A stretch of DNA of 64,000 nucleotides from a virus (Duplodnaviria; Caudoviricetes), in IMG/VR virus record IMGVR_UViG_3300032254_000001, positions 32,001-96,000 of that record. One strand, 5' to 3'. Positions 1,938 through 17,796 of the stretch are shown here, piece by piece. The position numbers and the translations under genes are program-made. Positions within the stretch are counted from its first letter, which is position 1. Every line of letters starts with the position of its first letter. The notes below the pieces were generated by a model. The model worked only from the letters and a program-made list of their open reading frames with translations. It was not told the origin of the DNA and made no database searches.

Positions 1938-1939
1938 GA

Positions 1940-3417: not shown

Positions 3418-3424
3418 AGCGGTA

Positions 3425-3744: not shown

Positions 3745-3809
3745 TTAATAACATTAATATTGCACACTAACTAACATCCATTCTGTTAATGTGCAAGGTT
3801 TAATGTTAC

Positions 3810-4286: not shown

Positions 4287-4325
4287 GGTCCACCCCCTCT
4301 TGGTTATGTATTACTTATAGTAATT

Positions 4326-4398
4326 TGGTGGTTACCGAGGGGTTCGGACCCTACCTGGCCATCCTTATGAGGGACGGATGTCTCCGCTGACTGTAACC
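4326..4398 (-). tRNA. degenerate tRNA-Met-like (CAT)
   Basis: Loop CT-CAT-AA and CCA; weak D and T arms. Confidence 0.5.
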
Positions 4399-4437
4399 GT
4401 TATGCGGAGGAAGGTAGGTGTAAGTTGCTACCTTCCG

Positions 4438-4848
4438 TTATTCTATCCTGCTTGTGGTACCACTTCCAAACTTACCGTGGTTCCAATTGCCTGTTCCTAA
4501 TTCGTCTAAACTGTGTATATGGATTTCGCAATACGCTGTATCGTGGTCTGCACCATTCCATGCGTTCCAATCCCATTCACATTTATACCATGCTTTCTCA
4601 TCTGCACCTAAATCCTTGTACAGTGAAATTGCTCCGCTTACTGCATGACCCCATGGCGGAATATTGTGATGGCTAATTAAACCAGCATTTTCAGTTACCG
4701 CTGTATAGCGTTGTCCTTCGTGCCAGTAAATAGCTTCTACTTCACCGCCGGATGATCTCGGCTCGCTTGAGCAACCTGCAATAAATGCACCTGCAACAAA
4801 CATAACGACTAACGTGTTAAATGCAGTTGATATAGTTTCGAGTTTCAT
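4438..4848 (-). CDS. hypothetical lipoprotein
   Basis: Hydrophobic N-terminus with IAGC lipobox. Confidence 0.6.
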   Translation of the reverse strand: MKLETISTAFNTLVVMFVAGAFIAGCSSEPRSSGGEVEAIYWHEGQRYTAVTENAGLISHHNIPPWGHAVSGAISLYKDLGADEKAWYKCEWDWNAWNGADHDTAYCEIHIHSLDELGTGNWNHGKFGSGTTSRIE

Positions 4849-4862
4849 AGGATTCCTATTAG

Positions 4863-5105
4863 TTAGTTTACAATTTGTTCTTTCGATTCTGCTAACTGGC
4901 GGGCAATGTCTTCGGCTACTGCAATCTCTTTGCGTATCCAACGCATGAACAATATAGCCTTGTCCTCTGCGTTCATTGCTGCGGTACCTACATCACTAAC
5001 TGGAACTGGAAATTTAAATCCACATTCTGTAGTGTACCATAACTCACCTTCTTTGTAAAAGAGAAACGTCACTTTCTTATCTTTAATCATATCTTTAATG
5101 TTCAT
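4863..5105 (-). CDS. hypothetical protein
   Basis: ORF with AAGGAG RBS. Confidence 0.65.
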   Translation of the reverse strand: MNIKDMIKDKKVTFLFYKEGELWYTTECGFKFPVPVSDVGTAAMNAEDKAILFMRWIRKEIAVAEDIARQLAESKEQIVN

Positions 5106-5129
5106 GCAGTTTCTCCTTTATTGCATTGT

Positions 5130-5205
5130 TGCTAGCGATCAGGAGTCGAACCTGAGGTGTGACTATTAAGAGTCTAATGGTGTCCCCGTCCTCGGGGTCA
5201 CTAGC
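5130..5205 (-). ncRNA. tRNA-like RNA with 8-bp acceptor and 5-bp T-stem (selC-like fold), unclear anticodon
   Basis: GCTAGTGA/TCGCTAGC, D hairpin CCCCG-AGGA-CGGGG, TCAGG-TTCGACT-CCTGA. Confidence 0.5.
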
Positions 5206-5207
5206 GG

Positions 5208-5675
5208 TTATTTTAATACGTCTTTAACGATACCTGACGCAGACTTACCATCGTATAGACCATTGTGTCTGGCCTTAAGCAGTTTCATAACTTCGCCCAT
5301 CATACGTGGTGACTTTTCAGGAAGTTCAACGTCTACTATGTCAACAACTATAGCACGTAGTTCTTCATTAGTCATTAACTTAGGCATATACTTTTCAAGA
5401 ATATCAATCTCTAGTTGAAGCTCTAAAATCTTTGAAGCTTCGGGACTTTCAGCATGGGTACCTGTCTTTATTAAATGCCCCATAGTCTCATTTGCATTCT
5501 TGAGAAACTTCTTCATAACTGCTTGAACTTCAGCATCGGTAGATTCACGATTGCCGTCATTCTTACCAGGCATTGAAGCTTCGCCGATAAGGGTTGTTAA
5601 AATGCTAGCAGCCTCTTTATCTCTAATCTTGCGAGCCGTTAGCTGATCTGCTTTTACCGTTGCCATTAATGACAT
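5208..5675 (-). CDS. GatB/YqeY domain protein
   Basis: YqeY-like helical pattern (EIDILEKYMPK, MGEVMK). Confidence 0.8.
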   Translation of the reverse strand: MSLMATVKADQLTARKIRDKEAASILTTLIGEASMPGKNDGNRESTDAEVQAVMKKFLKNANETMGHLIKTGTHAESPEASKILELQLEIDILEKYMPKLMTNEELRAIVVDIVDVELPEKSPRMMGEVMKLLKARHNGLYDGKSASGIVKDVLK

Positions 5676-5697
5676 ATTGCTTCTCCTGGTTATTGTT

Positions 5698-5780
5698 TGG
5701 TACGTCTGGAGGGAGTCGAACCCTCAAGGGATCGGGGTTTAAACCCGTTAGCTGTGCCAATTTACATAATCCACAGACGC
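5698..5780 (-). tRNA. tRNA-Leu(TAA) without long variable arm, enlarged D-loop
   Basis: Loop TT-TAA-AC, A73, CCA. Confidence 0.75.
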
Positions 5781-5790
5781 ATTGTTAATA

Positions 5791-5907
5791 GGGTGATTAC
5801 CATAGGATTCGAACCTACAAGACGACAGTCTAACAGTGTGACCAAAACTAAGCTATACAAAGTTCCAGCCTAACCACCGAATGTGCTACCAATACACGTG
5901 ATAATCA
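5791..5907 (-). ncRNA. type-II tRNA-like RNA with a ~36-nt anticodon loop
   Basis: 8-bp acceptor, D-arm, stem CGGTG/CACTG, variable hairpin, T-arm. Confidence 0.55.
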
Positions 5908-5912
5908 TTGTT

Positions 5913-5989
5913 TGGCAGGGGAGGAGAGATTCGAACTCCCAACACGCGGATTTGGAGACCGCTGCTCTAGCCATTGGAGCTACACCCCT
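5913..5989 (-). tRNA. tRNA-Trp(CCA)
   Basis: Canonical cloverleaf, G73. Confidence 0.95.
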
Positions 5990-7120
5990 TTAAATCATAC
6001 TCCAGTAATTAGTACGTGGAGTTTCTACATTCTTTGCAATGAAAATAAACTTGTCTGTTTCGTAAACTAGCTTACCTTCTTTCTCGTAAGCTAAGTCTTC
6101 GTCCTGTACGTAAATTTCATCGTATAAATCATCTGGATCAAGCTCAGGAATATCAGCTCTACCCCTAACTTGGTCTGTCCTGGCTACTGCCTTGATCTTA
6201 ATGTAAGTATATCTGTTAGCACTACCTGGCTTAGAAACAAATGGCGTTTCAAATATTTCACGCTCTGTGTCTGTGCCACGTTCGATAATTTTAACAATTT
6301 CAAGCATTGCACCTGAGCTTTCACGTAAGTCAATGTTTAAATCTTCTGTAGTATCTGCAATAGCAGTACCGAAACGTAAATGCTCTTCAACAATTGATTG
6401 TAACATATCAAAGCTGAATATGTTCGAGCGTCTTGATACATCGGTAATATCTTTAACTATTTCTTTGCTTACTCCATTGTCTTGGCAGTAACCAACAATG
6501 CTACCTTCATCCAACTTCTTGTACTTGAAGTGGTAGTAAACACGACTTGGGCGATTCAGCATAAAGTCGTTAATATCAAGTTCGCTGTTCTCAGTCAATA
6601 TGAACATACGCTTTGTTTTATCAACACCGTCCATAAGTGACAACAGTGCCTTTTGTGGTATTTCACCTTCGTTGTTATGTCTATCTGACGATGCATACAT
6701 TTTACCAAATTCATCAAATACAACAGCGCATTCGCCAATTGTTTCAATAAAGTCTGTAAACTGTGAACCAGCATATGCATCTTTAATTAACAGAACTGGT
6801 AGCTCTAAATCAGTGACTACTTTGTTTGCAAGTAAAGACATTAGTAATGTTTTACCTGTACCTTTGTCTCCTGTCAGGAGAATGCCTGTTGAAGTATCGC
6901 GATCCTTGTAAGTGTTTAAACACTTTTCAACGCGACCTGGAGTTTTACCATAAATCTTTTCAGGAAGCTCCAGCTGGTCCTTTGTAATTGTAAGGTAAAA
7001 ACCTTGCAACTGACTATACTGAACAGTATAAATTCTTGGAGGCAAAGCGTCCAGCGTTGTTTCTTCATTCATATTGAATACGTGTACGGTTGAACCGCTT
7101 ACAAAGAACTTAGTTTTCAT
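5990..7120 (-). CDS. AAA+ ATPase
   Basis: Walker A GDKGTGKT, Walker B VVFDEFGK, RPSR arginine finger. Confidence 0.85.
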   Translation of the reverse strand: MKTKFFVSGSTVHVFNMNEETTLDALPPRIYTVQYSQLQGFYLTITKDQLELPEKIYGKTPGRVEKCLNTYKDRDTSTGILLTGDKGTGKTLLMSLLANKVVTDLELPVLLIKDAYAGSQFTDFIETIGECAVVFDEFGKMYASSDRHNNEGEIPQKALLSLMDGVDKTKRMFILTENSELDINDFMLNRPSRVYYHFKYKKLDEGSIVGYCQDNGVSKEIVKDITDVSRRSNIFSFDMLQSIVEEHLRFGTAIADTTEDLNIDLRESSGAMLEIVKIIERGTDTEREIFETPFVSKPGSANRYTYIKIKAVARTDQVRGRADIPELDPDDLYDEIYVQDEDLAYEKEGKLVYETDKFIFIAKNVETPRTNYWSMI

Positions 7121-7202
7121 GTATTAGCCTTAGGTATGTGTTTATTAACTTTTAAGTATTATATGACACTTTTGAGCATTGAGCAACTATTTTGGTAAAA
7201 AT

Positions 7203-7289
7203 TGGTATTCCGGACGGGAATCGAACCCGCTAATTGCTTTCGCAAAGCCTGAGTGAAAGTCAGGTGACCGACCGTTAGTCATCCGGAAT
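7203..7289 (-). tRNA. tRNA-Glu(TTC) with long variable arm
   Basis: Loop CT-TTC-AC; V-arm TTGC-GAAA-GCAA. Confidence 0.85.
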
Positions 7290-7295
7290 ATAATT

Positions 7296-7382
7296 TGGAG
7301 CCAAGAGTGAGATTCGAACTCACGACGGGGTTACCCCTCCGGCTTACAAAACCGGTGCAATCGTCCACTATGCGACCTTGGC
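7296..7382 (-). tRNA. tRNA-Thr(TGT) with long variable arm
   Basis: Loop TT-TGT-AA; V-arm GGGG-TAA-CCCC. Confidence 0.85.
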
Positions 7383-7398
7383 AAGATAAAATGTACTT

Positions 7399-7475
7399 TG
7401 GGGTGAAGGACGAGATTTGAACTCGCATCTGACTCATTCACAGTGAGGGGCTTTACCAATTAAGCTACCGACACC
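7399..7475 (-). tRNA. tRNA-His(GTG)
   Basis: Loop CT-GTG-AA, G-1/C73. Confidence 0.9.
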
Positions 7476-7489
7476 CCAAAATACACTCG

Positions 7490-7515
7490 TAAAAAAGCAG
7501 ACCGGAGTCTGCTTT
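7490..7515 (-). terminator. rho-independent terminator
   Basis: GCAGAC-TCCG-GTCTGC followed by T6. Confidence 0.85.
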
Positions 7516-7516
7516 A

Positions 7517-7700
7517 TGGTTGTGGGACGCGGACTTGAACCGCTGGTAGATTTCCTTCCCAACTAATTTAGCTATGGGCTTCAACTCCACAGCCCAAGAC
7601 AGTAACTCAAATACTTGCCCGAGGCGGTCGACTAGGTAGTCCCCAAGTTATGAGCAAGGGCGATTTATTGTGTAGTCGATACCACACCGAAGTGCCTAAC
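7517..7700 (-). ncRNA. structured RNA ending in a T-arm and CCA
   Basis: GCGG-TTCAAGT-CCGC, GGGAC/GTCCC, CCA, internal helices. Confidence 0.5.
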
Positions 7701-7713
7701 TAAAATTCTAAAA

Positions 7714-7831
7714 TGGTGCCTCCCGCGAGACTTGAACTCGCATGACTTTCGTCGGGGGATTTTATCGAACACCCTTATTTAAAGATGCTCTGTAAAAGTC
7801 CCCTGTGTATGCCTGATTCCACCAGAGAGGC
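7714..7831 (-). tRNA. tRNA-Leu-type gene with a 32-nt insertion in the anticodon loop
   Basis: Leu D-arm, V-arm and A73; stem GGGGA/TCCCC encloses 39 nt including a 10-bp hairpin. Confidence 0.8.
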
Positions 7832-7895
7832 TTTGTTTTTGTTTATTTATTATAACATCATGTGCTTCAAATAAATACCGTATAGGAGAAACACA

Positions 7896-8510
7896 ATGAA
7901 TAGAATACAAGAATACTTACCAAGCTACTGCTACAGTTCATCTAAGATGAAAAGCGTAGATGGTATTGTTATCCACTATTTCAGTGGTAAGTATCAATTT
8001 GCAGATGATCCGTTTAACACTGAAAAATGTTTAAATCTTTTTAAAGACTTAAACCGTCCCGCTAAAGAGCGAGAACACTTTAAGATGAACGATGTGCAAA
8101 AGCGTATGTACGCTTCAGCACACTTCATGATTGCACGAGACGGTACAATATATGATCTAGTTCCACTTCCACAACGTGCATGGCATGCTGGTAAATCCGA
8201 ATGGAACGGTAAGTCGCATTGCAATAACTGGATGGTTGGTATCGAAATGGTTGCTACTGGTAGCAGCGGATACACAGACGAACAGTATAAAGCACTTATT
8301 AATCTTACTGAAGAACTAATTAAAGAACACGATATCTCTTGGGATAACATCACAGGACACGAAAATGTCGCTCCTGGACGTAAAAGAGATCCAGGTTCAA
8401 AGTTTGATTGGGATCGTTATCGCGCAATGAAAGAACCAGCTAAGTTAGCATATGCTGCCGCTATGGCTGAATACATTCCGTGGGCTGACGACGAAGACGA
8501 CGATTTTTAA
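7896..8510 (+). CDS. N-acetylmuramoyl-L-alanine amidase (AmpD-like; candidate endolysin)
   Basis: IVIHY, SAHFMI, AWHAG, GIEM, GHENVAPGRKRDPG motifs. Confidence 0.9.
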   Translation: MNRIQEYLPSYCYSSSKMKSVDGIVIHYFSGKYQFADDPFNTEKCLNLFKDLNRPAKEREHFKMNDVQKRMYASAHFMIARDGTIYDLVPLPQRAWHAGKSEWNGKSHCNNWMVGIEMVATGSSGYTDEQYKALINLTEELIKEHDISWDNITGHENVAPGRKRDPGSKFDWDRYRAMKEPAKLAYAAAMAEYIPWADDEDDDF

Positions 8511-8512
8511 TT

Positions 8513-8598
8513 TGGTGCGCCGGGTGGGTTTCGAACCCACACGCTCTTTCGAGCACGAGGTTCTTAGCCTCGCATGTCTGCCATTCCATCACCAGCGC
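8513..8598 (-). tRNA. tRNA-Leu(AAG)
   Basis: Loop CT-AAG-AA, long V-arm. Confidence 0.85.
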
Positions 8599-8600
8599 AT

Positions 8601-8683
8601 TGGTACGTCCGGTGGGATTCGAACCCACAAAGGTCTGGTGTTTGAAACCAGTAGCTGTGCCAATTTACATTAACCACGGACGC
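8601..8683 (-). tRNA. tRNA-Leu(CAA) without long variable arm, enlarged D-loop
   Basis: Stem CTGGT/ACCAG, loop TT-CAA-AC. Confidence 0.8.
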
Positions 8684-8691
8684 ATTACATT

Positions 8692-8774
8692 TGGTACCTG
8701 GGGCGGGAGTCGAACCCGCAAGGGTCTGGAGTCTAAATCCAGTAGCTGTGCCAATTTACATTAACCACCCAGGC
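8692..8774 (-). tRNA. tRNA-Leu(TAG) without long variable arm, enlarged D-loop
   Basis: Stem CTGGA/TCCAG, loop TT-TAG-AC. Confidence 0.8.
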
Positions 8775-8780
8775 ATAATT

Positions 8781-8856
8781 TGGTAGGACGACAGGGCCTC
8801 GAACCCTGATCACAACGGTTAAAAGCCGCGTCTCTGCCCACTTGAGTTACCGTCCT
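8781..8856 (-). tRNA. tRNA-Lys(TTT)
   Basis: Loop CT-TTT-AA. Confidence 0.85.
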
Positions 8857-8862
8857 ATAATT

Positions 8863-8938
8863 TGGTGGACCGCCCCGGCAACGATCCGGGAACTTCTCGG
8901 GTAAGAGCCGAGTACTCTGCCAATTGAGTTAGCAGTCC
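8863..8938 (-). tRNA. tRNA-Lys(CTT)
   Basis: Loop CT-CTT-AC; T-loop ATCGTTG. Confidence 0.85.
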
Positions 8939-8944
8939 ATAATT

Positions 8945-9031
8945 TGGTGGGGCGACAGGGATTCGAACCCTGGATGTCCTTTCGGATCGTCTGATTAAAA
9001 GTCAGGTGCCATACCGCTTGGCGACCGCCCC
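8945..9031 (-). tRNA. tRNA-Lys(TTT) with long variable arm
   Basis: Loop CT-TTT-AA; V-arm TCC-GAAA-GGA. Confidence 0.85.
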
Positions 9032-9032
9032 G

Positions 9033-9060
9033 TAAAAAAACCTAGCAAGCTAGGTTTTTG
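9033..9060 (-). terminator. rho-independent terminator immediately 5' of tRNA-Lys
   Basis: AAAAACCTAG-CTTG-CTAGG-T7. Confidence 0.75.
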
Positions 9061-9165
9061 TTTGTATGTTAGTTTTATCCTTCTTCAAAAAGGACATCCA
9101 GGGTTCGAACCGATATCATAATCTATTGTTTACCAACATACGGTATAAATTGTGGTCGCGCTAGA

Positions 9166-9414
9166 TTATGCGGTTGCTACTGTGTCTGTTTCAGTTAACT
9201 TTGCAGTAACTTCGACGCCACGGCATTTTAGAACTGTTAGTGCTTTCTGATGAAACTTCTTCTGGCCTTTGTTGCTCAGAACTTCCATGAGTGCTTCTGT
9301 TGACATTGTGTGTGCTGATTTACCACCTTTACGTGTTCCGATTAAGAACTTATGTGCTGGTGCTGCAACAACTAGGCCGCTTTTAGTTTTCTTTGTTGAA
9401 CGATTCTTTGGCAT
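9166..9414 (-). CDS. small basic hypothetical protein
   Basis: AGAGG RBS before MPKNRST. Confidence 0.6.
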   Translation of the reverse strand: MPKNRSTKKTKSGLVVAAPAHKFLIGTRKGGKSAHTMSTEALMEVLSNKGQKKFHQKALTVLKCRGVEVTAKLTETDTVATA

Positions 9415-9491
9415 TACTATTTCCTCTGTTAAGGGTTTAAACAAAAACAGCGACAATATTGCCGCTGTTTTTAATTACATTTACGTTACTT

Positions 9492-10775
9492 TTAGAAACG
9501 TTGTGAATACGATGCTTGTAATTCGTACTGGTCCATTTTCAATGATACAGTTTGTGCATCAAAGCCTGTTGGTCCAGTAATAGTATTACTTGGCGCGTAC
9601 ATTGCAGCTAGTGAGAACTCTGAAGTGTCACTTAGCGGAGTTGTGAAACCAGCTGTGTAGTGGGTTTCTATTACTGCTGGAGCTAAAATGTTGAACATGT
9701 TCTGTCCATCTGTAATAGGCTGTTCAGCGTGTGAAACACCTAAGCGGTACTTAGTAGATGTACCAAACTCATAACCGAACTTGTAAATGGTCATATCTTC
9801 CCAACCAAATCCAGCACCGTTCTCACCGCCTAAGCGACCTGAACCGTCTTGGTAAGCCATTAAGTTTTGAACACTATTACCAATTGAGTCAACATCACCA
9901 TAAGCGATATGTTGTGCATCAAATACTAATGTAGTTGTTGGAGAAGTTTTAATAGCTACGCCTAATGTCGCTGTAGCTGGAATATTAAATTCACCACCGT
10001 TAGCAAATAAACCTGAGTAGTCTTCTAACAAGCTCATGTTAATTTGTGACTGGTAAGAAGCACCAAATGCTATAGGACCAGCGTCACCCTGCCAACCTAC
10101 TTTGATGCCAATACCTGTTGAAATATCAGCGTCATTGTTAGTTAGTTTAGATGCGTCTGTTGACATCTGACCAAACATTTGCAAGCCTTTAGCTTCGAAT
10201 GTCTGTATAGCTGTTACAGCACTAACGCCAATTGCGTGATGCTTATCGACTTGATGTGATAATGAAGCGTTAATGAATAACTGTTTCAAATCTACACCAG
10301 CAGTACCACCGCCAAATGTACCAGAAGCGCCTGGAACCGTCATTGCCATTGGAGAAGCAACACCTTTGTATTCTGTGTTCATGCCACCGCTTCCGTAAAC
10401 AGAAACACCAATTGCTGTTACGTCGCTAATCATTTTGTTATAACCAAAATGTGGAATTGCAAAGTAATCGTTGTCACTTTCGGCTGTACCTGGCATTAAT
10501 GGGAAAGTACCTGGTTGTCCGGTTGGATTGCCTTCTACCGTGTATTCACGACGTGGGCTAAAAATAGCTAAACCAACATCTAGTCGCGTACCTACTTTGA
10601 CCATGCCTGCTGGGTTAGTTGCTGATGCTAATGCATCCTGTGAGTATGCAACACCGGCGCCAGCCATACCTTTTTCTTTGGTACTGTATCCGTGTGCAAA
10701 ATATCCGTTTGTTGCAAATGCAACTGATGACGACATTAATGTAGCTGCCGCGATTGCCATTGTTAGTTTTTTCAT
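9492..10775 (-). CDS. OmpP1/FadL/TodX family outer-membrane transporter
   Basis: Signal peptide, ATNGYFAHGY..GMAGAGVA, NPAG hatch motif, terminal Phe. Confidence 0.9.
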   Translation of the reverse strand: MKKLTMAIAAATLMSSSVAFATNGYFAHGYSTKEKGMAGAGVAYSQDALASATNPAGMVKVGTRLDVGLAIFSPRREYTVEGNPTGQPGTFPLMPGTAESDNDYFAIPHFGYNKMISDVTAIGVSVYGSGGMNTEYKGVASPMAMTVPGASGTFGGGTAGVDLKQLFINASLSHQVDKHHAIGVSAVTAIQTFEAKGLQMFGQMSTDASKLTNNDADISTGIGIKVGWQGDAGPIAFGASYQSQINMSLLEDYSGLFANGGEFNIPATATLGVAIKTSPTTTLVFDAQHIAYGDVDSIGNSVQNLMAYQDGSGRLGGENGAGFGWEDMTIYKFGYEFGTSTKYRLGVSHAEQPITDGQNMFNILAPAVIETHYTAGFTTPLSDTSEFSLAAMYAPSNTITGPTGFDAQTVSLKMDQYELQASYSQRF

Positions 10776-10857
10776 TATAATTGTTTCCTCAATATTGATT
10801 GTTAACGTAAGTTAGTATACATATTGAGAACAAGTAAGTCTACTCGTTTGGCTAAAT

Positions 10858-10931
10858 TGGTACCCAGTGTTGGAATCGAACCAACGTCTCCGCCTTGTAA
10901 AAGCGGCGATAATCCCCTCAGCTAACCGGGT
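10858..10931 (-). tRNA. tRNA-Val(TAC)
   Basis: Loop TT-TAC-AA; weak D-stem. Confidence 0.75.
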
Positions 10932-10937
10932 GTAAAT

Positions 10938-11013
10938 TGGTATCTCCAGTAGGAACCGAGCCTACAACCTTCGCTATGTTAAAGCGATGCTCTACCAGTT
11001 GAGCTATGGAGAT
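10938..11013 (-). tRNA. tRNA-Val(AAC)
   Basis: Loop TT-AAC-AT; T-loop CTCGGTT. Confidence 0.75.
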
Positions 11014-11015
11014 AT

Positions 11016-11090
11016 TGGAGCTCTTACCCAGAACCGAGCTGGGATTTCAGCGTTACGAGTGCCGTGTTCTGCCTGTTGAACTATAAGAGC
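11016..11090 (-). tRNA. tRNA-Thr(CGT)
   Basis: Loop CT-CGT-AA; T-loop CTCGGTT. Confidence 0.8.
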
Positions 11091-11094
11091 AATT

Positions 11095-11170
11095 TGGTAT
11101 CCCTGACTGGATTCGAACCAGTATTCCAAGACTTAGGAGGTCCGGCGTTGTCCAGTTGACTTACAAGGAT
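11095..11170 (-). tRNA. tRNA-Arg(CCT)
   Basis: Loop CT-CCT-AA. Confidence 0.75.
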
Positions 11171-11176
11171 ATTGTT

Positions 11177-11252
11177 TGGCGTCCCCGGTAGGATTCGAAC
11201 CCACATTCTTCGGCTTAGAAGACCTAGCGTTCTCCAGTTGACTTACAGGGAC
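11177..11252 (-). tRNA. tRNA-Arg(TCT)
   Basis: Loop CT-TCT-AA. Confidence 0.8.
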
Positions 11253-11258
11253 ATAATT

Positions 11259-11339
11259 TGGCGCCCACGGTAGGGTTCGAACCTACATTTGCATCCAATT
11301 ACCTTACTCGACGTTCGTAGCGCCGGGGGTTACGTGGGC
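11259..11339 (-). tRNA. D-armless tRNA-Arg(ACG) with long variable region
   Basis: Acceptor, anticodon and T arms intact; D-arm replaced by TAACCCC. Confidence 0.7.
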
Positions 11340-11346
11340 AGTATTT

Positions 11347-11438
11347 TGGTACCTCTACCAGGATTCGAACCTGGACTACTCGCTAATCTGGCGATACGAC
11401 CGTATAAAAGTCGTGTGCTACCGTTACACTATAGAGGT
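11347..11438 (-). tRNA. tRNA-Ile(TAT) with long variable arm
   Basis: Loop TT-TAT-AC; V-arm TCGC..GCGA. Confidence 0.8.
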
Positions 11439-11445
11439 GCAGTGC

Positions 11446-11522
11446 TGGTGGGCCTTGTAGGATTTGAACCTACGACCAACGAATTATGAGTTCGCTGCTC
11501 TGACCAGCTGAGCTAAAGGCCC
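11446..11522 (-). tRNA. tRNA-Ile2(CAT)
   Basis: CAT anticodon; body resembles ileX-type tRNA. Confidence 0.75.
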
Positions 11523-11528
11523 GATGTT

Positions 11529-11614
11529 TGGTAGCGAGAGTAGGAGTCGAACCTACGAAACCTTTCGGTATAGGGTTATGAGCCCCATCACTTTATCCAC
11601 TTGTATATCTCGCG
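11529..11614 (-). tRNA. initiator-type tRNA-fMet(CAT) with long variable arm
   Basis: C1:T72 mismatch, three G-C pairs in the anticodon stem, V-arm ACC-GAAA-GGT. Confidence 0.75.
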
Positions 11615-11710
11615 TCAATAAGTTACATCACTTACTATGATTCGGCCGAACCACGGATAGTGATGCTTTCCCGGCAAGTATTGTAAGCGGCCGCTTAATT
11701 TCCTTGCCTT

Positions 11711-11786
11711 GCATACCAGGTGGGACTCGAACCCACATACACAGCCTTCAACGGCTGCCGCTGTTCCAATTCGCGTACTAGCGTAC
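11711..11786 (-). pseudogene. degenerate tRNA
   Basis: T-arm intact, 6-nt anticodon loop, weak acceptor, no CCA. Confidence 0.45.
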
Positions 11787-11797
11787 TTCTTTAAATT

Positions 11798-11873
11798 TGG
11801 TGCATCCTGTTGGTAACGCTCCAACTCCTATGGGGTTTCAATCCATTGCTTCTACTTAGTTAGCTTAGGATGC
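11798..11873 (-). tRNA. tRNA-Phe(GAA)
   Basis: Loop TT-GAA-AC; T-loop AGCGTTA. Confidence 0.8.
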
Positions 11874-11878
11874 ATGTT

Positions 11879-11952
11879 TGGTAGTTCCAGAAGGACTTGA
11901 ACCCTCATAGACCGGTAATCGGCCGGCAGCCTTACCATTAGACGATGGAACT
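11879..11952 (-). tRNA. tRNA-Ile(GAT)
   Basis: Loop CC-GAT-TA (lacks U33). Confidence 0.75.
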
Positions 11953-11958
11953 ATTGTT

Positions 11959-12046
11959 TGGTACTACCGGTTGGAGTCGAACCAACTGTAAGGAATTACC
12001 CTTGCACGGTTATCAGCCGTGTGCTTAACCGTTCAGCGTCGGTAGT
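11959..12046 (-). tRNA. tRNA-Ile(GAT) with long variable arm
   Basis: Loop CT-GAT-AA; V-arm AAGGG-TAAT-TCCTT. Confidence 0.85.
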
Positions 12047-12052
12047 ATAATA

Positions 12053-12149
12053 TGGCGGAAGAGGGCGGACTCGAACCCCCACAGCGCAGGATCGCTACGC
12101 TGACCGGTTTTCAAGACCGGGCCGATACCAAATTTCGGTTGACTCTTCC
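12053..12149 (-). tRNA. tRNA-Ser(TGA)
   Basis: Type II cloverleaf, G73. Confidence 0.9.
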
Positions 12150-12242
12150 ATTAATTCGTTCGCGACGTTCGATGCAATTGGCTCCGTCCACGACACTGAC
12201 ACTAACCGTTACCATTGCACACGGTTGACGTGTTTGTAAAAT

Positions 12243-12329
12243 TGGCGGAAGATGTGAGATTCGAACTCACACAGCCTTACGGCTGTACTCCTTAGCAGGG
12301 AGCTATGTTACCAGTTGCATCAATCTTCC
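12243..12329 (-). tRNA. tRNA-Ser(GCT)
   Basis: Type II cloverleaf, G73. Confidence 0.9.
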
Positions 12330-12397
12330 AGTAATAGTGTTGGGCCATATAGATTCAGATTCTACTGTAAATTGTTTGACAACACTACATTTTAAAA

Positions 12398-12530
12398 TGG
12401 GGCAATGTGTTGGAGTTGAACCAACTATAACTAACGACAAACTTTACGTATCATCGCTGCAGGCTAGTTACGCTCCGCTGTAGCTACTAAACCGTTAGTG
12501 CATTAACCAACAATTATGCTATACACCGCC
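12398..12530 (-). ncRNA. His-like tRNA body with a long (~55 nt) anticodon-loop insertion
   Basis: 8-bp acceptor GGCGGTGT/ACATTGCC plus CCA, stem CTAACG/CGTTAG, T-arm. Confidence 0.6.
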
Positions 12531-12541
12531 ATTGAATTTGA

Positions 12542-12679
12542 TTGAGGAAAGTGGAACCACTTTTTATGGCGGCTGTGCTACCGTTACACTACATGCCAGC
12601 ATTCCTGGTACATGGGAGGAGTCGAACCTCCACTTGCTGCTTGGCTTATTTTAGAAGGAAGTAAATCCCATAGCCTCAA
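12542..12679 (-). ncRNA. Y-RNA-like (YrlA-type) RNA with a circularly permuted tRNA module
   Basis: GAGG-CTA-stem-TCCTTCT scaffold enclosing a T-arm, loop-closed acceptor stem and D-arm. Confidence 0.65.
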
Positions 12680-12880
12680 ATTTTTGTTACTTTTTCGATT
12701 CATCTATTAGGTGCTTAATAGCCCTTAGTGAACGTAAGTCTACTTCCGCTTGCTTGCGAAAGATTGGATTTTTTTGTGTTTTTAAAACTTCAACCAGTAA
12801 GTTAATTTTCTGGTTTAAACGTTCTATTGTTATATTAATGTACTCATGTTAATACCCTCTATGGTAAGTGTATTTATGAT

Positions 12881-12966
12881 TGGTGCTGCCTGTAGGATTC
12901 GAACCTACTCATCCAGTGGAATCGGGTTTACAATCCGACGTGACTCTCCATCTTCACCGCGACAGC
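12881..12966 (-). tRNA. tRNA-Tyr(GTA)
   Basis: Loop TT-GTA-AA, V-arm. Confidence 0.85.
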
Positions 12967-12978
12967 GTAATTTTAATT

Positions 12979-13065
12979 TGGTGGATCTAGTTGGATTCGA
13001 ACCAACAATGCCAGAAGCGCCGAGTTTACAGTCCGGTGGTAGCAACCAGTTCTACCATTAGATCC
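12979..13065 (-). tRNA. tRNA-Tyr(GTA)
   Basis: Loop CT-GTA-AA, V-arm. Confidence 0.85.
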
Positions 13066-13071
13066 ATTGTT

Positions 13072-13157
13072 TGGAAGCGACGGTGAGGGTCGAACTCACA
13101 ATGCCCGAAAGCGCCAGATTCAAAGTCTGGTGGGGTTACCAATTTTCCTACATCGCT
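13072..13157 (-). tRNA. tRNA-Gln(TTG) with long variable arm
   Basis: Loop CT-TTG-AA; V-arm GCT-TTCG-GGC. Confidence 0.85.
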
Positions 13158-13167
13158 ATAATTTATT

Positions 13168-13242
13168 TGGAGACTCTACTCGGTTTCGAACCGAGGCTTG
13201 AAGATTTGCAATCAACCGCACTACCAATTATGCTACAGAGTC
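13168..13242 (-). tRNA. tRNA-Cys(GCA)
   Basis: Loop TT-GCA-AA, U73. Confidence 0.8.
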
Positions 13243-13250
13243 AAAGTGTT

Positions 13251-13322
13251 TGGCACCGCGACAAGGTGTTGATCCCTGCAAGCCGGGGGTTGGAATCCCA
13301 GCACCTCCCCGGAGGCCACGGC
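13251..13322 (-). tRNA. atypical selC-like tRNA, anticodon probably CCA (Trp)
   Basis: D hairpin GCCTC-CGGG-GAGGT, 8-nt anticodon loop ATTCCAAC, G73, CCA. Confidence 0.5.
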
Positions 13323-13335
13323 ATTAAAAAGGTAC

Positions 13336-13444
13336 CTTGTAAGCTCTCGTTAGACTGATTAACTACCGCGTGTAGTCGCGTTCTAACAATAGGCGTGTAC
13401 TGACGCCTCGTTTTACTTGTGATGCATTGCATCCTTCTTACAAG
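13336..13444 (-). ncRNA. multibranch structured RNA candidate
   Basis: Closing stem CTTGTAAG/CTTACAAG with three internal hairpins. Confidence 0.5.
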
Positions 13445-13518
13445 CAGCCCTGTACAGGATTCGAACCTGTGTTTCCAGCCTTCACGGGCCGGTGTCCTAA
13501 CCACTAGACGAACGGGGC
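13444..13518 (-). tRNA. Glu/Asp-body tRNA with 8-nt anticodon loop (CCGTGAAG)
   Basis: Intact D and T arms, no CCA. Confidence 0.5.
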
Positions 13519-13669
13519 ATAAAAATCGTGGAACTGATCATATTACAAAACAGTACCTAAACACTGTTACAATGCAATAAGGGTAGCGCAAAGTTCCGTA
13601 GCCTATATTCTACCATTTTCTGACTTCACTGCATATGCATAATTAGGTTGCACATACATCACATCAAAT

Positions 13670-13932
13670 TGGCTGTGACAGTTGGGTTCGAACCAACGTT
13701 ACCGGCTCAAATCGCTTATGCTGGGTGCCGGTGTTTTGCCGCCTACTTGCTTTCATTGTACACTTTCTTGATAAGTTTCTTTTAGCTTTTGCACGTCTGG
13801 CCTGCTCAATCCTTTCAAAAGAGTCTGGTAGTTTTTATAGCCTAAGCGATTGTTACCATTGGTGTTACTAACTAAGGTACTTCTCAACATTACTAATGCA
13901 GTCTTACTAACTTTCGTCTAAACTACATCACA
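13670..13932 (-). ncRNA. tRNA gene with a large D-loop insertion carrying a 45-codon ORF and a 20-nt anticodon loop
   Basis: Acceptor TGTGATG/TGTCACA-G-CCA, D-stem GTTT/AAAC, CCGGC/GCCGG, T-arm. Confidence 0.7.
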
Positions 13933-14007
13933 ATAAATTCTTGCAGTTTCTCCGACTCGATCCGTTAACTAGTATGGATGTCCGTACAATGCCTCGTAGA
14001 AGTAAAT

Positions 14008-14081
14008 TGGTGGACACGCGGAGAGTCGAACTCCATCTTCCTCATTGCAAAAGAGGTGCTTTCCCGTTAAGCTAACGGCCC
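14008..14081 (-). tRNA. tRNA-Ala(TGC)
   Basis: G3:U70, loop TT-TGC-AA; imperfect acceptor. Confidence 0.75.
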
Positions 14082-14161
14082 ATGATTTGGAGGAAAGGGT
14101 TGGCTTTTCACCAACTATAAACGGTAACAGAGAACGTTGTGTTACCTCACTCGCCATTGTT

Positions 14162-14235
14162 TGGTGGAGATTCGGAGAATCGAACTCCGATCAAAGCGTT
14201 GCAAACGCCCCGTAATCCCGTTATACTAAACCCCC
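14162..14235 (-). tRNA. tRNA-Ala(TGC)
   Basis: G3:U70, loop TT-TGC-AA. Confidence 0.9.
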
Positions 14236-14256
14236 AATTGTTTGGCTTTATAAATT

Positions 14257-14331
14257 TGGCTCCGGTAGCTGGAATCGAACCAACCTGCCACAGATTAACA
14301 GTCTGCTGCCACACCTTGCGGCCCTACCGGA
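14257..14331 (-). tRNA. tRNA-Asn(GTT)
   Basis: Loop CT-GTT-AA, G73. Confidence 0.9.
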
Positions 14332-14332
14332 A

Positions 14333-14776
14333 TTATCCGTATTGCGGTAATCCCCTAGCCTTGCGACCTTTACCTGTGTTTTTTGCGCCAAATGTTTCTT
14401 GTTGACTATCACAGTTTGGACATACCATTTGAAAATTGTCTGGATGATCGTTTGATGCATTGCCGTCAATGTGATCACACCATAGTGAAATAGGTTTATT
14501 GTTCCAGCTATCGATGCCACAGATATTACATTTATTGCCATCCCGCTTAATAACAAATTCTCTGATCAGCTTTCTCGGAGTTTTTAATCCTAAGTCACAT
14601 CCTGCTAACCAATCCTGATATCGTTTCTCAAATAACTTTTGCGATTTATCTTTTCTATAATTTATATTACACACTGTACTACAAAATTTATGATTATAAC
14701 TATAACCTTTGAACTTAAATTCTGTACTACAATGACCGCATATAAAAGTTTCGTCTTTTTTCCTTTTGATGTTCAT
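14333..14776 (-). CDS. HNH endonuclease
   Basis: CNICG, DHIDGNASND...VCPNC. Confidence 0.85.
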   Translation of the reverse strand: MNIKRKKDETFICGHCSTEFKFKGYSYNHKFCSTVCNINYRKDKSQKLFEKRYQDWLAGCDLGLKTPRKLIREFVIKRDGNKCNICGIDSWNNKPISLWCDHIDGNASNDHPDNFQMVCPNCDSQQETFGAKNTGKGRKARGLPQYG

Positions 14777-14954
14777 ATGGTAGAGCCTTTTAAAATAGTT
14801 ATATTTTATTTATCACTCTACCACCTGAACAGAAATTTTAAACTACTTTATCACGACATTGATCGCCACCACAGCAACCCTGTTTCGTTCAATTTCGTTA
14901 AGGTAGCATTACACAACTTCACCGGTTAAGATCCGCCTTCATGTAACCCTTAAT

Positions 14955-15040
14955 TGGCTCCGAGAGTAGGGATCGAACCTACGTTGTTTACACAAGCCTA
15001 TGGTTAACAGCCACGCGCATTACCACTCTGCCACCTCGGA
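14955..15040 (-). tRNA. tRNA-Asn(GTT) with long variable arm
   Basis: Loop CT-GTT-AA; V-arm TTGT-GTAA-ACAA. Confidence 0.85.
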
Positions 15041-15048
15041 ATTATAAA

Positions 15049-15189
15049 TGCTCTTACTGGGGCAGGCTGGGATTCTAACCCACAACGACTTGACTATTGT
15101 CGCGTTTGCATGTAACGCACCGAGGGTCAACTCGTCAAGTTCCACGCCTTTACATACCCGCGGTATGCTTCTCTGCCCCAGTAAGAACA
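15049..15189 (-). ncRNA. tRNA-like RNA with a 17-bp terminal helix
   Basis: Terminal inverted repeat, T-like arm TGGG-TTAGAAT-CCCA, CTTGAC/GTCAAG arm with two hairpins. Confidence 0.55.
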
Positions 15190-15199
15190 CTTTTAAAAT

Positions 15200-15273
15200 T
15201 GGAGCCTGGTAAGGGACTCGAACCCTCATCTGTACGTTGGCAACGTACGGTTCTACCGTTGAACTAACCAGGC
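15200..15273 (-). tRNA. tRNA-Gly(GCC)
   Basis: Canonical cloverleaf, U73. Confidence 0.95.
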
Positions 15274-15274
15274 G

Positions 15275-15952
15275 TTATTCTTGTTTTAATACTCTACCTT
15301 TTTTAAAACCTTCTGGTATAGTATCATTCTTTTTGATCTTTTTATTAATTGTTCCGTCTGTTATCCACATCGTTCCGTACTGTGAATTGCCACTGCCTTG
15401 CTGACACTTAGATGAATTTGCACCTATAGCATCTTTTGTTTCTTGTGTATGCTTCTTATTTTTAAATGTACCGTGACCGTAGCGTTCAAGTATAGTTGCT
15501 TTAATCTTTTGTCCTGCTTGCTTGAACGATTCAGGCGTTCTATTTTTACCTGACATTTTACCAATGATACTCTTGAAATCATCACCGTACTTTTCTAGTA
15601 ATATACTATCTGTTATTTCTCGTGCCCTGCGATTCTTTTGAATACGTGCCTCTTCGTTAGAGTTTATATAATCCCATCCACCAAAGCCACCAACCTTAAG
15701 ATTGTATGTATTTTCTTCTGCAATAAAGTCTTTATTAACTATTTCGGCTTCTTTATTAAACATATCTTCTGGATTGTCAAATACATGTAAAATTTCTTTG
15801 CTAAAATTTTCAACACCGTGTTTATTAATTGCATAGTTAAGGTACTTTCCTGAACCTAAATAACCATCGTTTAAGTTACTGGTCTTATGCGCGCCTATAT
15901 AGACCTTGCCTGTAACTTTATTTGACGTCTTATAAATTGTATAGTAAACCAT
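15275..15952 (-). CDS. GIY-YIG (Seg-like) homing endonuclease
   Basis: YTIYKTSNKVTGKVYIGAH..YLGSG, E and YNL motifs; NUMOD3-like tail. Confidence 0.9.
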   Translation of the reverse strand: MVYYTIYKTSNKVTGKVYIGAHKTSNLNDGYLGSGKYLNYAINKHGVENFSKEILHVFDNPEDMFNKEAEIVNKDFIAEENTYNLKVGGFGGWDYINSNEEARIQKNRRAREITDSILLEKYGDDFKSIIGKMSGKNRTPESFKQAGQKIKATILERYGHGTFKNKKHTQETKDAIGANSSKCQQGSGNSQYGTMWITDGTINKKIKKNDTIPEGFKKGRVLKQE

Positions 15953-15991
15953 ACTATTATTTATGACGTTCGAGTCCATATCGAACTCTAA

Positions 15992-16072
15992 TGAGCGGGT
16001 GACGAGAATCGAACTCGCCATGCTTTCGCGTCTGGTTGGAAACCAGGTTCCACACCTTGTGGACTCACCCGC
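15992..16072 (-). tRNA. tRNA-Gly(TCC) with extended variable arm, CCA not encoded
   Basis: Loop TT-TCC-AA; V-arm GC-GAAA-GC. Confidence 0.8.
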
Positions 16073-16082
16073 ATAAATTAAA

Positions 16083-16194
16083 TTTGTAGCCTTGCCCATT
16101 ACTCGCAAATGTCACACTGGTCCTCAGAATTGAACTGCCACGGGCGGGTATATTCTGCCCCGCCCTGCAAACCATTGCTAACCAGCACTACAAA
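16083..16194 (-). ncRNA. tRNA-like domain nested in an outer stem
   Basis: TTTGTAG/CTACAAA enclosing CTGGT/ACCAG, D-like, 7-bp and T-like arms. Confidence 0.45.
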
Positions 16195-16197
16195 ATT

Positions 16198-16278
16198 TGG
16201 CGTCCAGCGTCGGTATTGCACCGCACTCCTACTCCAGTAACGTTATCTCTGGAGCAACACGTCTCATGTTGACTGAAC
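16198..16278 (-). ncRNA. tRNA-like RNA with 6-bp D-stem and 11-nt anticodon loop
   Basis: Acceptor plus G-CCA, CAACAT/GTGTTG, CTCCAG/CTGGAG. Confidence 0.5.
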
Positions 16279-16287
16279 ATATAAAGT

Positions 16288-16360
16288 AGAGGAAAGTGAA
16301 AACACTATTCGGTTTGATTAAAAGTCAATTTTTAGAAGGAAGTGAACTTTCATAGCCTCT
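16288..16360 (-). ncRNA. Y-RNA-like RNA displaying a tRNA-Lys anticodon stem-loop
   Basis: Same scaffold as 12542-12679; insert TTGA-CTTTTAA-TCAA. Confidence 0.6.
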
Positions 16361-16365
16361 TTATT

Positions 16366-16384
16366 TGGTGCCCTGTTACAGGGC
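16366..16384 (-). ncRNA. tRNA acceptor microhelix with A-CCA end
   Basis: GCCCTG-TAA-CAGGGC-A-CCA. Confidence 0.4.
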
Positions 16385-16390
16385 GATATT

Positions 16391-16465
16391 TGGCGACGTA
16401 GAAGGGAATCGAACCCTCATTGTACTGATAGACAATCAGCTGCATTACCAATCTGCCACTACGCC
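16391..16465 (-). tRNA. tRNA-Asp(GTC)
   Basis: Loop TT-GTC-TA, G73. Confidence 0.85.
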
Positions 16466-16740
16466 GTAATTCTTTTCTTACATCCCCAAGTATCTGTTTG
16501 TCTATGACAGTTAGGGCAAAGCAATCTTAAGTTAGATGGAAATGCATTTTCTACATCTCCGTCTATATGATCTAAATCTAATACAATTGGCTTATTTTGC
16601 CATTCGTTTATTCCGCATATTGCACAGAACTCACCGTCTCTTTCCACGACATACTTTCCTGCTTCTATCAGTGGTACTTGTACAGTTTTCCATTGATAAG
16701 CTTGCTGACATGTGTTGTTGCAAGGCGCTTATTACTCCTT
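16459..16740 (-). pseudogene. HNH endonuclease remnant
   Basis: CAICG, DHIDGD..N..LLCPNCH; upstream CNNTCQ zinc motif follows in-frame stops and has no start codon. Confidence 0.7.
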
Positions 16741-16783
16741 TTGGAACCCTTCGCATTATATCGCAGTTGATACTATTTAAAAT

Positions 16784-16859
16784 TGGTCTCTCTGCGAGGA
16801 TTTGAACCTCGGACGCTCCGCCCCAAACGGACCATGTTACCAGACTACACTACAGAGAG
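16784..16859 (-). tRNA. tRNA-Pro(TGG)
   Basis: C1-G72, loop TT-TGG-GG. Confidence 0.9.
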
Positions 16860-16870
16860 ATTAAACTAAT

Positions 16871-16954
16871 GAGGAAATTGATATTACTAAACCAGTTGCC
16901 CTAAGGGCATCTTTGGAGTCGAACCAAAATAGAAGGAAGCAATATCATAGCCTC
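16871..16954 (-). ncRNA. Y-RNA-like RNA with a T-arm and acceptor-like hairpin
   Basis: Same scaffold; TTTGG-TTCGACT-CCAAA plus TGCCC-TTA-GGGCA. Confidence 0.6.
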
Positions 16955-16958
16955 GAAA

Positions 16959-17032
16959 TGGTCAGGGTGGCGAGAGTCGAACTCGCTTCTTGAGTGTCCA
17001 AGACACACGGATTGCCGTTTTCCCACACCCTG
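16959..17032 (-). tRNA. tRNA-Pro(TGG)
   Basis: Loop CT-TGG-AC. Confidence 0.85.
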
Positions 17033-17071
17033 TTAATCACACGTCTTACGGCTCTAATGCCTGCGCTATGT

Positions 17072-17145
17072 TGGTATCCCGAAGGGGTATCGATCCCCTG
17101 TTGCCAAGTTGAAAGCCTGGAGTTCTACCATTAAACTACCGGGAT
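17072..17145 (-). tRNA. tRNA-Glu(TTC), first gene of the array
   Basis: Loop CT-TTC-AA; T-loop ATCGATA. Confidence 0.85.
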
Positions 17146-17417
17146 ATAAATTAGTTGGGCCTATATTTTGTAACCGGGCCTTACGGTTACTTCTTTTTTC
17201 AAAAACAATTAAAAGGTTGAAGAAGCCAGTTATGTATTCACTGACTAACCTATTTCCTTTCCAGTGGATGCATACTGTGTATGCTTGTACCCACGTGCCT
17301 GGCCGCTTATCTAGTGTTTATATCTAGGCGGAGTTGCTATATACAGGGAGGGGGCTTTCACCACTTGCTCTTACTGTATACACCGTCTTTGAAAATCTTA
17401 AAACTTTTACTACTTCA

Positions 17418-17457
17418 TAAAAAAACCCGCTTAACTTTCGTTTTGCGGGTTCTTTTT
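17418..17457 (-). terminator. attenuator terminator upstream of the tRNA array
   Basis: AAGAACCCGC...GCGGGTT plus T-run. Confidence 0.85.
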
Positions 17458-17478
17458 AAACTGTTTGTATGTGCTGTT

Positions 17479-17640
17479 TTACATACAAGTTCTCCAAGAA
17501 CCCTTCGTATCATAACCTCGTTCTAAATTAATATTAAAACTTGGTGTCCACGACTGCATCGGTGCTGACGCCACAATACATCCGCGTATCCCTGAGGCTA
17601 CTAGTTGTTTAAGTTGTATTGTAGTATGTCTTGAAGTCAT
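17479..17640 (-). CDS. putative attenuator leader peptide (53 aa)
   Basis: MTSRHTTIQLKQLVASGIRGCIVASAPMQSWTPSFNINLERGYDTKGSWRTCM; purine-rich RBS; lies between promoter and terminator. Confidence 0.7.
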   Translation of the reverse strand: MTSRHTTIQLKQLVASGIRGCIVASAPMQSWTPSFNINLERGYDTKGSWRTCM

Positions 17641-17675
17641 TGTCTCTTCTCTTCTCTTTAATTAAGTATGTAGCT

Positions 17676-17704
17676 ATTATAATGTAGCTAACTTACTGTG
17701 TCAA
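17676..17704 (-). promoter_or_regulatory. sigma70 promoter P1 of the tRNA operon
   Basis: TTGACA-17-TATAAT. Confidence 0.9.
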
Positions 17705-17767: not shown

Positions 17768-17796
17768 ATTATATGACAGCTAATATACTGTGTCAA
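17768..17796 (-). promoter_or_regulatory. sigma70 promoter P2 (tandem duplicate)
   Basis: TTGACA-17-TATAAT with the same downstream AGCTACATACTTAAT. Confidence 0.9.

Follow-up and report, generated by a model that had tools for sequence, protein, structure and literature searches.

Classical leader-peptide attenuators are represented by trpL, hisL, leuL, thrL and pheL and by the multivalent ilvGMEDA and ilvBN leaders. In these attenuators of amino-acid operons, the position of the ribosome selects the fold of the RNA, and a stall leads to read-through. The TnaC, SecM and Erm leaders encode nascent peptides that arrest the ribosome upon one ligand or condition. T-box riboswitches bind one tRNA directly and have no open reading frame (ORF). 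The leader toiL of E. coli reportedly acts through Rho. Why phages carry large tRNA sets, and how these are used, has been debated for decades, and to our knowledge the regulation of phage tRNA arrays is essentially undescribed. A full-text literature search found no publication describing leader-peptide attenuators before phage tRNA arrays. The accessible portions of recent work tie phage tRNAs to escape from tRNA-cleaving defences (PMC10264068, PMC11555353, PMC12409363).

The window, the whole stretch of 64,000 nucleotides analysed here, corresponds to positions 32001-96000 of a virus record that is 344 kb long and bears direct terminal repeats. Nearly all genes in the window were on the minus strand, and the closest protein matches among cultured phages were distant Vibrio phages. 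WIN denotes the window's own leader locus, and L-numbers denote homologous loci in metagenomic phage contigs. The following features were identified at WIN:

17768..17796, minus strand: promoter P1, TTGACA-17-TATAAT, 12/12 consensus match
17676..17704, minus strand: promoter P2, TTGACA-17-TATAAT, 12/12 consensus match
17643..17656, minus strand: Shine-Dalgarno-like purine-rich tract GAGAAGAGAAGAGA before the ATG
17479..17640, minus strand: leader ORF of 53 codons, with 20 amino acids and 38 distinct codons
17496..17503, minus strand: strand A, GGGTTCTT, candidate 5' strand of the antiterminator and near copy of the terminator 3' arm
17458..17492, minus strand: hairpin B and its outer extension in MFE folds, with the TAA (17481-17479) at the 3' end of its 5' arm
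17445..17454, minus strand: strand C, AAGAACCCGC, common partner of strand A (antiterminator) and strand D (terminator)
17419..17457, minus strand: intrinsic terminator, consisting of an A-tract, a CCCGC/GCGGG stem, a small inner helix and a T7 run ending at 17419
17150..17395, minus strand: conserved structured RNA and its 3' hairpin (44 consensus pairs, 21 compensatory, 9 loci)
1469..17145, minus strand: tRNA region, with 37 tRNAs called by ARAGORN and extra Rfam matches

All of the elements named in an earlier note on this DNA were found in place on the minus strand. Both of the perfect promoters that it had claimed (17796-17768 and 17704-17676) were present, and the 53-codon ORF (17640-17479), encoding MTSRHTTIQLKQLVASGIRGCIVASAPMQSWTPSFNINLERGYDTKGSWRTCM, contained every codon family that it had listed. 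The 8-bp complement between GGGTTCTT (17503-17496) and AAGAACCC (17454-17447) was confirmed, as was the TTGTATGT/ACATACAA hairpin at 17488-17465, which has the TAA inside. A terminator does follow the stop codon, but at a spacing of about 25 nt and not the ~20 nt first given. The tRNA array, placed ~270 nt past the terminator, begins 273 nt further on with tRNA-Glu(UUC) at 17145-17072 (-). The observed layout is genuine and exceeds chance expectation.

Judged from its sequence, the locus has the hardware of a classical leader-peptide attenuator, in which the presence of all 20 amino acids would replace enrichment in the sensed amino acid and the targets would be tRNA genes. As in the amino-acid-operon attenuators, a short ORF lies close to the promoter, an intrinsic terminator competes with an exclusive antiterminator that uses the terminator 5' arm, and the stop codon stands ~60-70 nt ahead of the U-run. 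Unlike in those systems, every one of the 20 amino acids occurs in the leader and none of them forms a regulatory run, its targets would be tRNAs and a structured RNA instead of biosynthetic enzymes, and the ORF itself contains the antiterminator strand, ahead of the stop codon. No conserved anti-antiterminator (1:2-type) pairing was found upstream of strand A when the folds were inspected by eye; therefore, absent translation should give read-through and not super-attenuation, so that an untranslated leader should read through here, unlike trpL. The leader matched no Rfam family, the Trp_leader, Leu_leader and Thr_leader models scoring 15.9-18 bits against thresholds of 41-55 and covering only the generic terminator.

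The leader also resembles toiL of E. coli topAI-yjhQP (as far as the available part of PMC12121999 describes it) and macrolide-inducible mef/mel attenuation (PMC4335068), in which slowed translation of a short ORF relieves premature termination and the response is to translation quality and not to one metabolite. In the accessible portions of these sources, by contrast, the signals are antibiotics, the regulated genes encode a toxin-antitoxin pair or resistance, and amino-acid completeness of the leaders is not reported. On the same partial text, toiL is the closest concept for general sensing (PMC12121999). T-box riboswitches measure tRNA charging via a choice between terminator and antiterminator, as the proposed attenuator would. 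None of their features (Stem I, specifier, T-box sequence) was present here, and no Rfam match to them was obtained in 17140-17720 (E up to 10) or in 1-22000 (E up to 1).

Homologues of the leader were found by an exhaustive HMMER search with the peptide, extended by a profile search. L002, L021, L023 and L032 were reached via neighbouring features, independently of the ORF being called, by a search for the HAD_SAK_2 gene and two scans with the downstream-RNA motif. The motif scan of metagenome contigs returned mostly chance GC-rich matches, the genuine ones being L023, L031 and L032. The family comprises 16 distinct peptides (WIN and 15 others) of 52-56 residues from marine, sediment, microbial-mat and other metagenomes, with the ORF intact in 16/16 and leader indels in multiples of three. 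L021 groups with L002 by peptide similarity. The order of features is shared, namely HAD_SAK_2, one to three small genes (at most loci), promoter or promoters, leader, terminator, structured RNA, tRNA-Glu and more tRNAs. The HAD_SAK_2 RNA-repair gene lies upstream of the leader in every locus, and tRNA genes on the same strand lie downstream in all 10 loci that reach far enough.

Several other searches gave no relatives. No second copy of the leader was found in the phage's own genome, and blastn and tblastn searches with the region, the ORF and a 318-aa neighbour gene recovered no cultured-phage relatives; weak matches of the ORF to cultured phages (E ~3-4) were dismissed as noise. A word-indexed protein search with the single leader peptide found no homologues, a related-locus search with the 318-aa neighbour or the peptide profile gave no match, and neither did exact-pattern scans of viral contigs for the terminator or the N-terminal codons. 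Two long repetitive proteins matched by HMMER, P0003 and P0004, were rejected as repeat artefacts. Among sequencing runs recorded as RNA, none was found to contain the locus.

The codon content of the leader is unusual for this phage. At least 38 distinct codons occurred in 0.3-0.4% of 53-codon windows taken from genes of this phage, whose ORFs of 48-58 aa reached this number in 1.4% of cases, and all 20 amino acids occurred in ~3% of such control windows or ORFs, so that codon diversity is higher than in the controls, in line with the earlier note. No single amino acid is enriched; all 20 are present instead. Across the members, 34-42 distinct codons were counted, i.e. 0.64-0.75 per codon, and the codon-adaptation score of 0.56-0.62 falls in about the bottom 5-6% of gene windows. 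Under simple wobble rules, the codons of the WIN leader are readable by 27/28 phage tRNA species, compared with 20.3 ± 2.2 species exercised in gene windows, at least 26 being reached in 0.4% of these. By manual count, the L002 leader covers all 15 anticodons in the retrieved part of its array.

All 20 amino acids were found in every member of the family (16/16). When alignment columns were permuted, a mean of 7/13 sequences was complete, and 13/13 was reached in 0/5000 trials. Evolution was also simulated along a maximum-likelihood tree from the extant WIN sequence with IQ-TREE site rates. All 12 other sequences were complete in 0/2000 simulations under a BLOSUM-derived model with site rates and in 7/2000 under column-specific frequencies, a very conservative model that redraws the observed residues of each column; the tree is short and noisy (~55 residues) and the models are approximate. 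Completeness is thus kept beyond tree-aware null models, with P of 0.004 or less. The histidine of MHSW is lost from WIN, L014 and L002, which have His at position 5 instead. Phenylalanine shifts between SF and LF across the alignment, and in the clade of L009, L010 and L016 ERG is replaced by GRG and YD by YE, Asp being present elsewhere in the peptide.

The 5' UTR of the leader would measure ~29 nt from P2, as judged from the -10 position. The Shine-Dalgarno-like tract is weak in WIN; GAGA, AGGA or TAGGA motifs lie 5-10 nt ahead of the leader ATG in all homologues, and the phage's own genes carry AGGAG, GGAGA or TAGGA.

Strand A pairs with strand C over 8-12 bp in all homologues. The first G of strand A occupies codon position 3 in WIN, position 2 in most members and position 1 in L007 and L015, and depending on the frame it encodes K-G-S-W, R-V-L or V-G-F-L. 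Because it is kept in three reading frames, strand A is conserved at the nucleotide level. The A:C duplex has an energy of -13.0 kcal/mol in WIN and -13 to -17.6 kcal/mol across members, compared with about -4.2 to -4.3 ± 2.1 kcal/mol for random 45-nt genome windows (P = 0.002 for WIN, and 0.002 or less in each member). A compensatory change from C:G to T:A (GGGTTTTT:AAAAACCC) occurred in L003 and again in L021. L015 has a triple change, TCGGG:CCCGA (G:C to T:A), with the terminator 3' arm altered too, and L008 has a G.U pair where its terminator stem is CTCGC/GCGAG. In an alignment of 16 sequences that was fitted to the model and leans towards structure, 92% of the cells of helix A:C were paired, and the covariation score was 0.247 compared with 0.131 ± 0.018 for shuffled alignments, every slid control being lower. 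In the same structure-leaning alignment, 7/7 inner pairs of hairpin B showed changes on both sides. The shape of hairpin B is kept with at least six unrelated sequences (GTATG/CATAC, GTGATTTAA/TTAAATCAC, AGTATTT/AAATACT, GAGTTA/TAACTC, ATATTA/TAATAT and TGTAATTAA/TTAATTACA). The terminator stem covaries as well (CCCAC/GTGGG, CTCGC/GCGAG, CCCGG/CCGGG and CCCGAC/GTCGGG), and a GC stem with T6-7 was present in 12/13 members, L006 having T4. Codon diversity and covarying antiterminator pairing, which the earlier note had suggested looking for in relatives, were thus both found in a family of 16 distinct members, 15 of them new homologous leaders.

The predicted folds follow the same pattern. The MFE structure of the nascent RNA, before the terminator 3' arm, was the A:C rod enclosing hairpin B in 13/13 members, the full-length RNA preferred the terminator fold in 10/13, and the leader region folded better than shuffled sequence (z = -4.1). 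In every member and any frame, the stop codon lies 12-21 nt past strand A (14 nt in WIN), a spacing that fits masking of strand A by a terminating ribosome; with textbook footprint sizes, such a ribosome would sit on or against strand A. The attenuator layout proposed earlier is therefore supported by the kept ORF, the covarying strands, the placement of the stop codon and the nascent fold, and a general rather than single-amino-acid sensor gains comparative support from the retention of all 20 amino acids beyond the null models.

From these data, we consider it rather probable that the element is a ribosome-coupled transcription attenuator that heads the tRNA region and reports overall decoding capacity. 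Sequence and comparison establish that its predicted parts exist, are conserved and covary, that all 20 amino acids are present, and which fold the nascent RNA is predicted to prefer. That the ORF is translated, how and when a ribosome would mask strand A, in which direction the switch responds and what triggers it physiologically are what we infer. Host RNA polymerase would start at the tandem consensus promoters and transcribe the 53-codon leader. A lead ribosome that keeps pace to the stop codon would melt hairpin B and cover or strain strand A, and with strand A masked, strand C would pair with strand D and transcription would terminate before the structured RNA and the tRNAs. With a ribosome delayed in about the first 43 codons, or never loaded, strand A would still be available as strand C is transcribed, and the extended A:C rod enclosing hairpin B would be the first structure to form. 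Transcription would then read through the structured RNA and continue along the tRNA array. The tRNAs so made would bring leader translation back, closing the loop. Because the leader holds 20 amino acids and is read by 27/28 tRNA species, running short of nearly any charged tRNA would lead to more tRNA being made, and tRNA synthesis by the phage is probably confined to times of slow decoding. The switch would respond to amino-acid starvation as well, a condition that extra tRNA would not relieve.

Codons 1-44, which precede the point at which a stalled ribosome would cover strand A, already hold all 20 amino acids in 11/13 members, and complete windows of 43-44 residues make up <1% of those among the phage genes. 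The only Asp codon of WIN (Asp44) and the only Asp and Val codons of L002 are placed on or beyond the border of the zone where a stall should free strand A, which counts against the decoding-capacity reading. By manual count, L021 lacks only Tyr44 in this zone.

A sensor of ribosome availability or of transcription-translation coupling, responding to initiation, inhibition or host shut-off and indifferent to codon content, would use the same switch. The ribosome-free nascent RNA is predicted to fold as the antiterminator, and any loss of translation would thus give read-through; known uORF sensors such as toiL respond, according to the accessible part of the source, to many ribosome inhibitors (PMC12121999). 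However, such a sensor leaves the maintained 20 amino acids and the 27/28 tRNA species unexplained, and we regard it as unlikely.

Conservation within the peptide bears on a second alternative, in which the same attenuator serves a specific signal. Codons ~2-14 (17601-17637, -) read TCA AGA CAA ACN ACA ATA CAA NNN AAA CAA CTA and are near-invariant at synonymous sites (pS 0.22 compared with 0.40-0.66 elsewhere, 13 homologues). This invariance could be due to codon-specific sensing or to the need for an unstructured translation start. The peptide block ERGYD is conserved with synonymous variation at its Arg and Gly codons, and WTPS is conserved with synonymous variation at the Pro codon only. 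The conserved WTPS and ERGYD blocks and the invariant N-terminal codons count against a pure composition sensor, which requires neither. They could instead belong to a nascent peptide (HSWTPS...NLFERGYD) that arrests the ribosome for one ligand or condition, the set of 20 amino acids being a by-product. Against such an arrest peptide, the pairwise dN/dS of the leader is only ~0.5-0.6, completeness is held by compensating substitutions beyond the null models, and a stall at ERGYD would mask strand A and not release it. Moreover, the putative arrest motifs have changed greatly in L002 and L021, whereas the full amino-acid set and the switch are retained in both. We consider an arrest peptide quite improbable. 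As a separate observation, codons of the N-terminal block end in A and are read by phage-encoded U34 tRNAs, namely Ser-UGA, Arg-UCU, Gln-UUG, Thr-UGU, Ile-UAU and Lys-UUU.

Perfect TTGACA-N16-18-TATAAT sites numbered 8 in the 344-kb genome, every one on the minus strand, compared with a chance expectation of ~0.5 (a rough estimate from base composition). The -35 hexamer of the P2 equivalent was TTGACA in 13/13 printed homologues, the -10 being degenerate in several, and tandem promoter pairs were also present in L002, L007 and L021. An A/T-rich tract upstream of P2 looks like an UP element, judged by eye only. A scan across the 17-kb tRNA region found no minus-strand sigma-70 site above 9/12 in 1-17400, and for this reason the whole tRNA region would have no strong sigma-70 driver besides the tandem P1 and P2.

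The structured RNA is ~200 nt long, lies between the leader terminator and tRNA-Glu, and has the invariant motifs GGCCAGGCACG and GGAAAG. It was also found at the following positions:

L002:10328-10580, structured RNA
L007:2852-3110, structured RNA
L008:4238-4485, structured RNA
L009:3286-3540, structured RNA
L012:2299-2548, structured RNA
L015:464-724, structured RNA
L018:335-588, structured RNA
L021, structured RNA

No Rfam match to this RNA was obtained at E up to 10. The loop of its 3' hairpin (for example GGCC, GCCCC, GGGGC or TGGGC) is matched by a complementary segment ~8 nt downstream; on inspection by eye, loop and segment covary, and the hairpin is thus likely to form a pseudoknot. 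In 9/10 loci with this RNA behind the terminator, the RNA starts at most ~50 nt past the terminator with no promoter between. A promoterless RNA behind the terminator and the lack of another strong promoter at WIN support a need for regulated read-through.

The exception is L002, where three TTGACT-17-TATAAT promoters follow the leader terminator. The L002 array is for this reason not dependent on read-through alone; these predicted promoters show that the gate would be dispensable there, and the terminator may not be the only gate. At L002:9905-10330, the promoters belong to three near-identical repeats of ~70 nt, one in each. Between repeat copies 2 and 3 lies a tRNA-like sequence with an apparent insert (~10100-10215), for which ARAGORN made no call.

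The separate promoters of L002 would also suit another reading, that of a standard early gene encoding a small protein between a dedicated promoter and terminator. This layout is common among early genes, and strand A would have no switching role in it. However, strand A is kept in three frames with compensatory changes, the stop codon is fixed inside a covarying hairpin, and in most loci the promoterless conserved RNA and the tRNAs lie directly behind the terminator. The dN/dS of ~0.5-0.6 makes it unlikely that the leader peptide is a folded protein; the WIN peptide had no PHROGs family match, and no Pfam family is on record for any leader homologue. This explanation appears very improbable. 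A non-coding element (sRNA or riboswitch-like leader) with an incidental open frame would account for the high nucleotide conservation of codons 1-14 and for the folding z-score, but is hardly credible, as the frame of 52-56 codons is open in 16/16 members, including the four found without protein searches, indels come in multiples of three, amino-acid completeness is meaningless unless the ORF is translated, and no Rfam family matches.

A broader form of the attenuator reporting decoding capacity can be put forward tentatively. In this giant-phage family, a 'pangram' leader may run a closed-loop homeostat of the whole tRNA pool, in which loss of any tRNA or amino acid leads to antitermination. 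Its inputs could include host defences that cleave tRNAs, or a decay of host tRNAs brought about by the phage, and its output would be the phage tRNA array and the new structured RNA. An anticodon nuclease as the trigger is conjecture, made plausible only by the nearby RNA-repair genes HAD_SAK_2 and RlaP. If true, a conserved leader with all 20 amino acids gating the array would mean a demand-controlled supply of tRNAs and would broaden leader-peptide attenuation, from the sensing of single amino acids to that of the decoding apparatus as a whole. As a compact natural part, the leader could report translation capacity.

Upstream of P1, a third promoter-like site, TTGACA-17-TAATAT, was present at 17928-17900 (-), within 17810-17930. 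Its conservation extends well past the hexamers (GTTGACAATAGA...AACCACTG) in L002, L003, L006, L008 and L012, and a conserved TTGCC...GGCAA hairpin follows it just ahead of P1. The site and the hairpin may represent a separate small transcript.

The tRNA region, with roughly 40 tRNA genes, is interspersed with homing-endonuclease and other genes, and many tRNAs of the array are 84-97 nt long. Genome-wide, ARAGORN called a single tRNA-Leu and no tRNA-Phe; tRNA-like matches that Rfam alone gave, missed or unassigned by ARAGORN, were at 1632-1750, 11801-11873, 12884-12966, 14011-14081 and 15995-16072. A possible amber suppressor, called by ARAGORN as a Pyl tRNA with anticodon CTA, lies at 61267-61340 (-), well away from the main array. 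RNA-repair-type genes flank the tRNA region, namely HAD_SAK_2 at 18967-19560 (-) and an RlaP-family nucleotidyltransferase at 24237-25214 (-), and an RNA-ligase match was found downstream at L008:7580-8171. Inside the tRNA region, a PAS-GGDEF diguanylate cyclase gene was identified at 2449-3417 (-) with a Pfam E of 5e-38.
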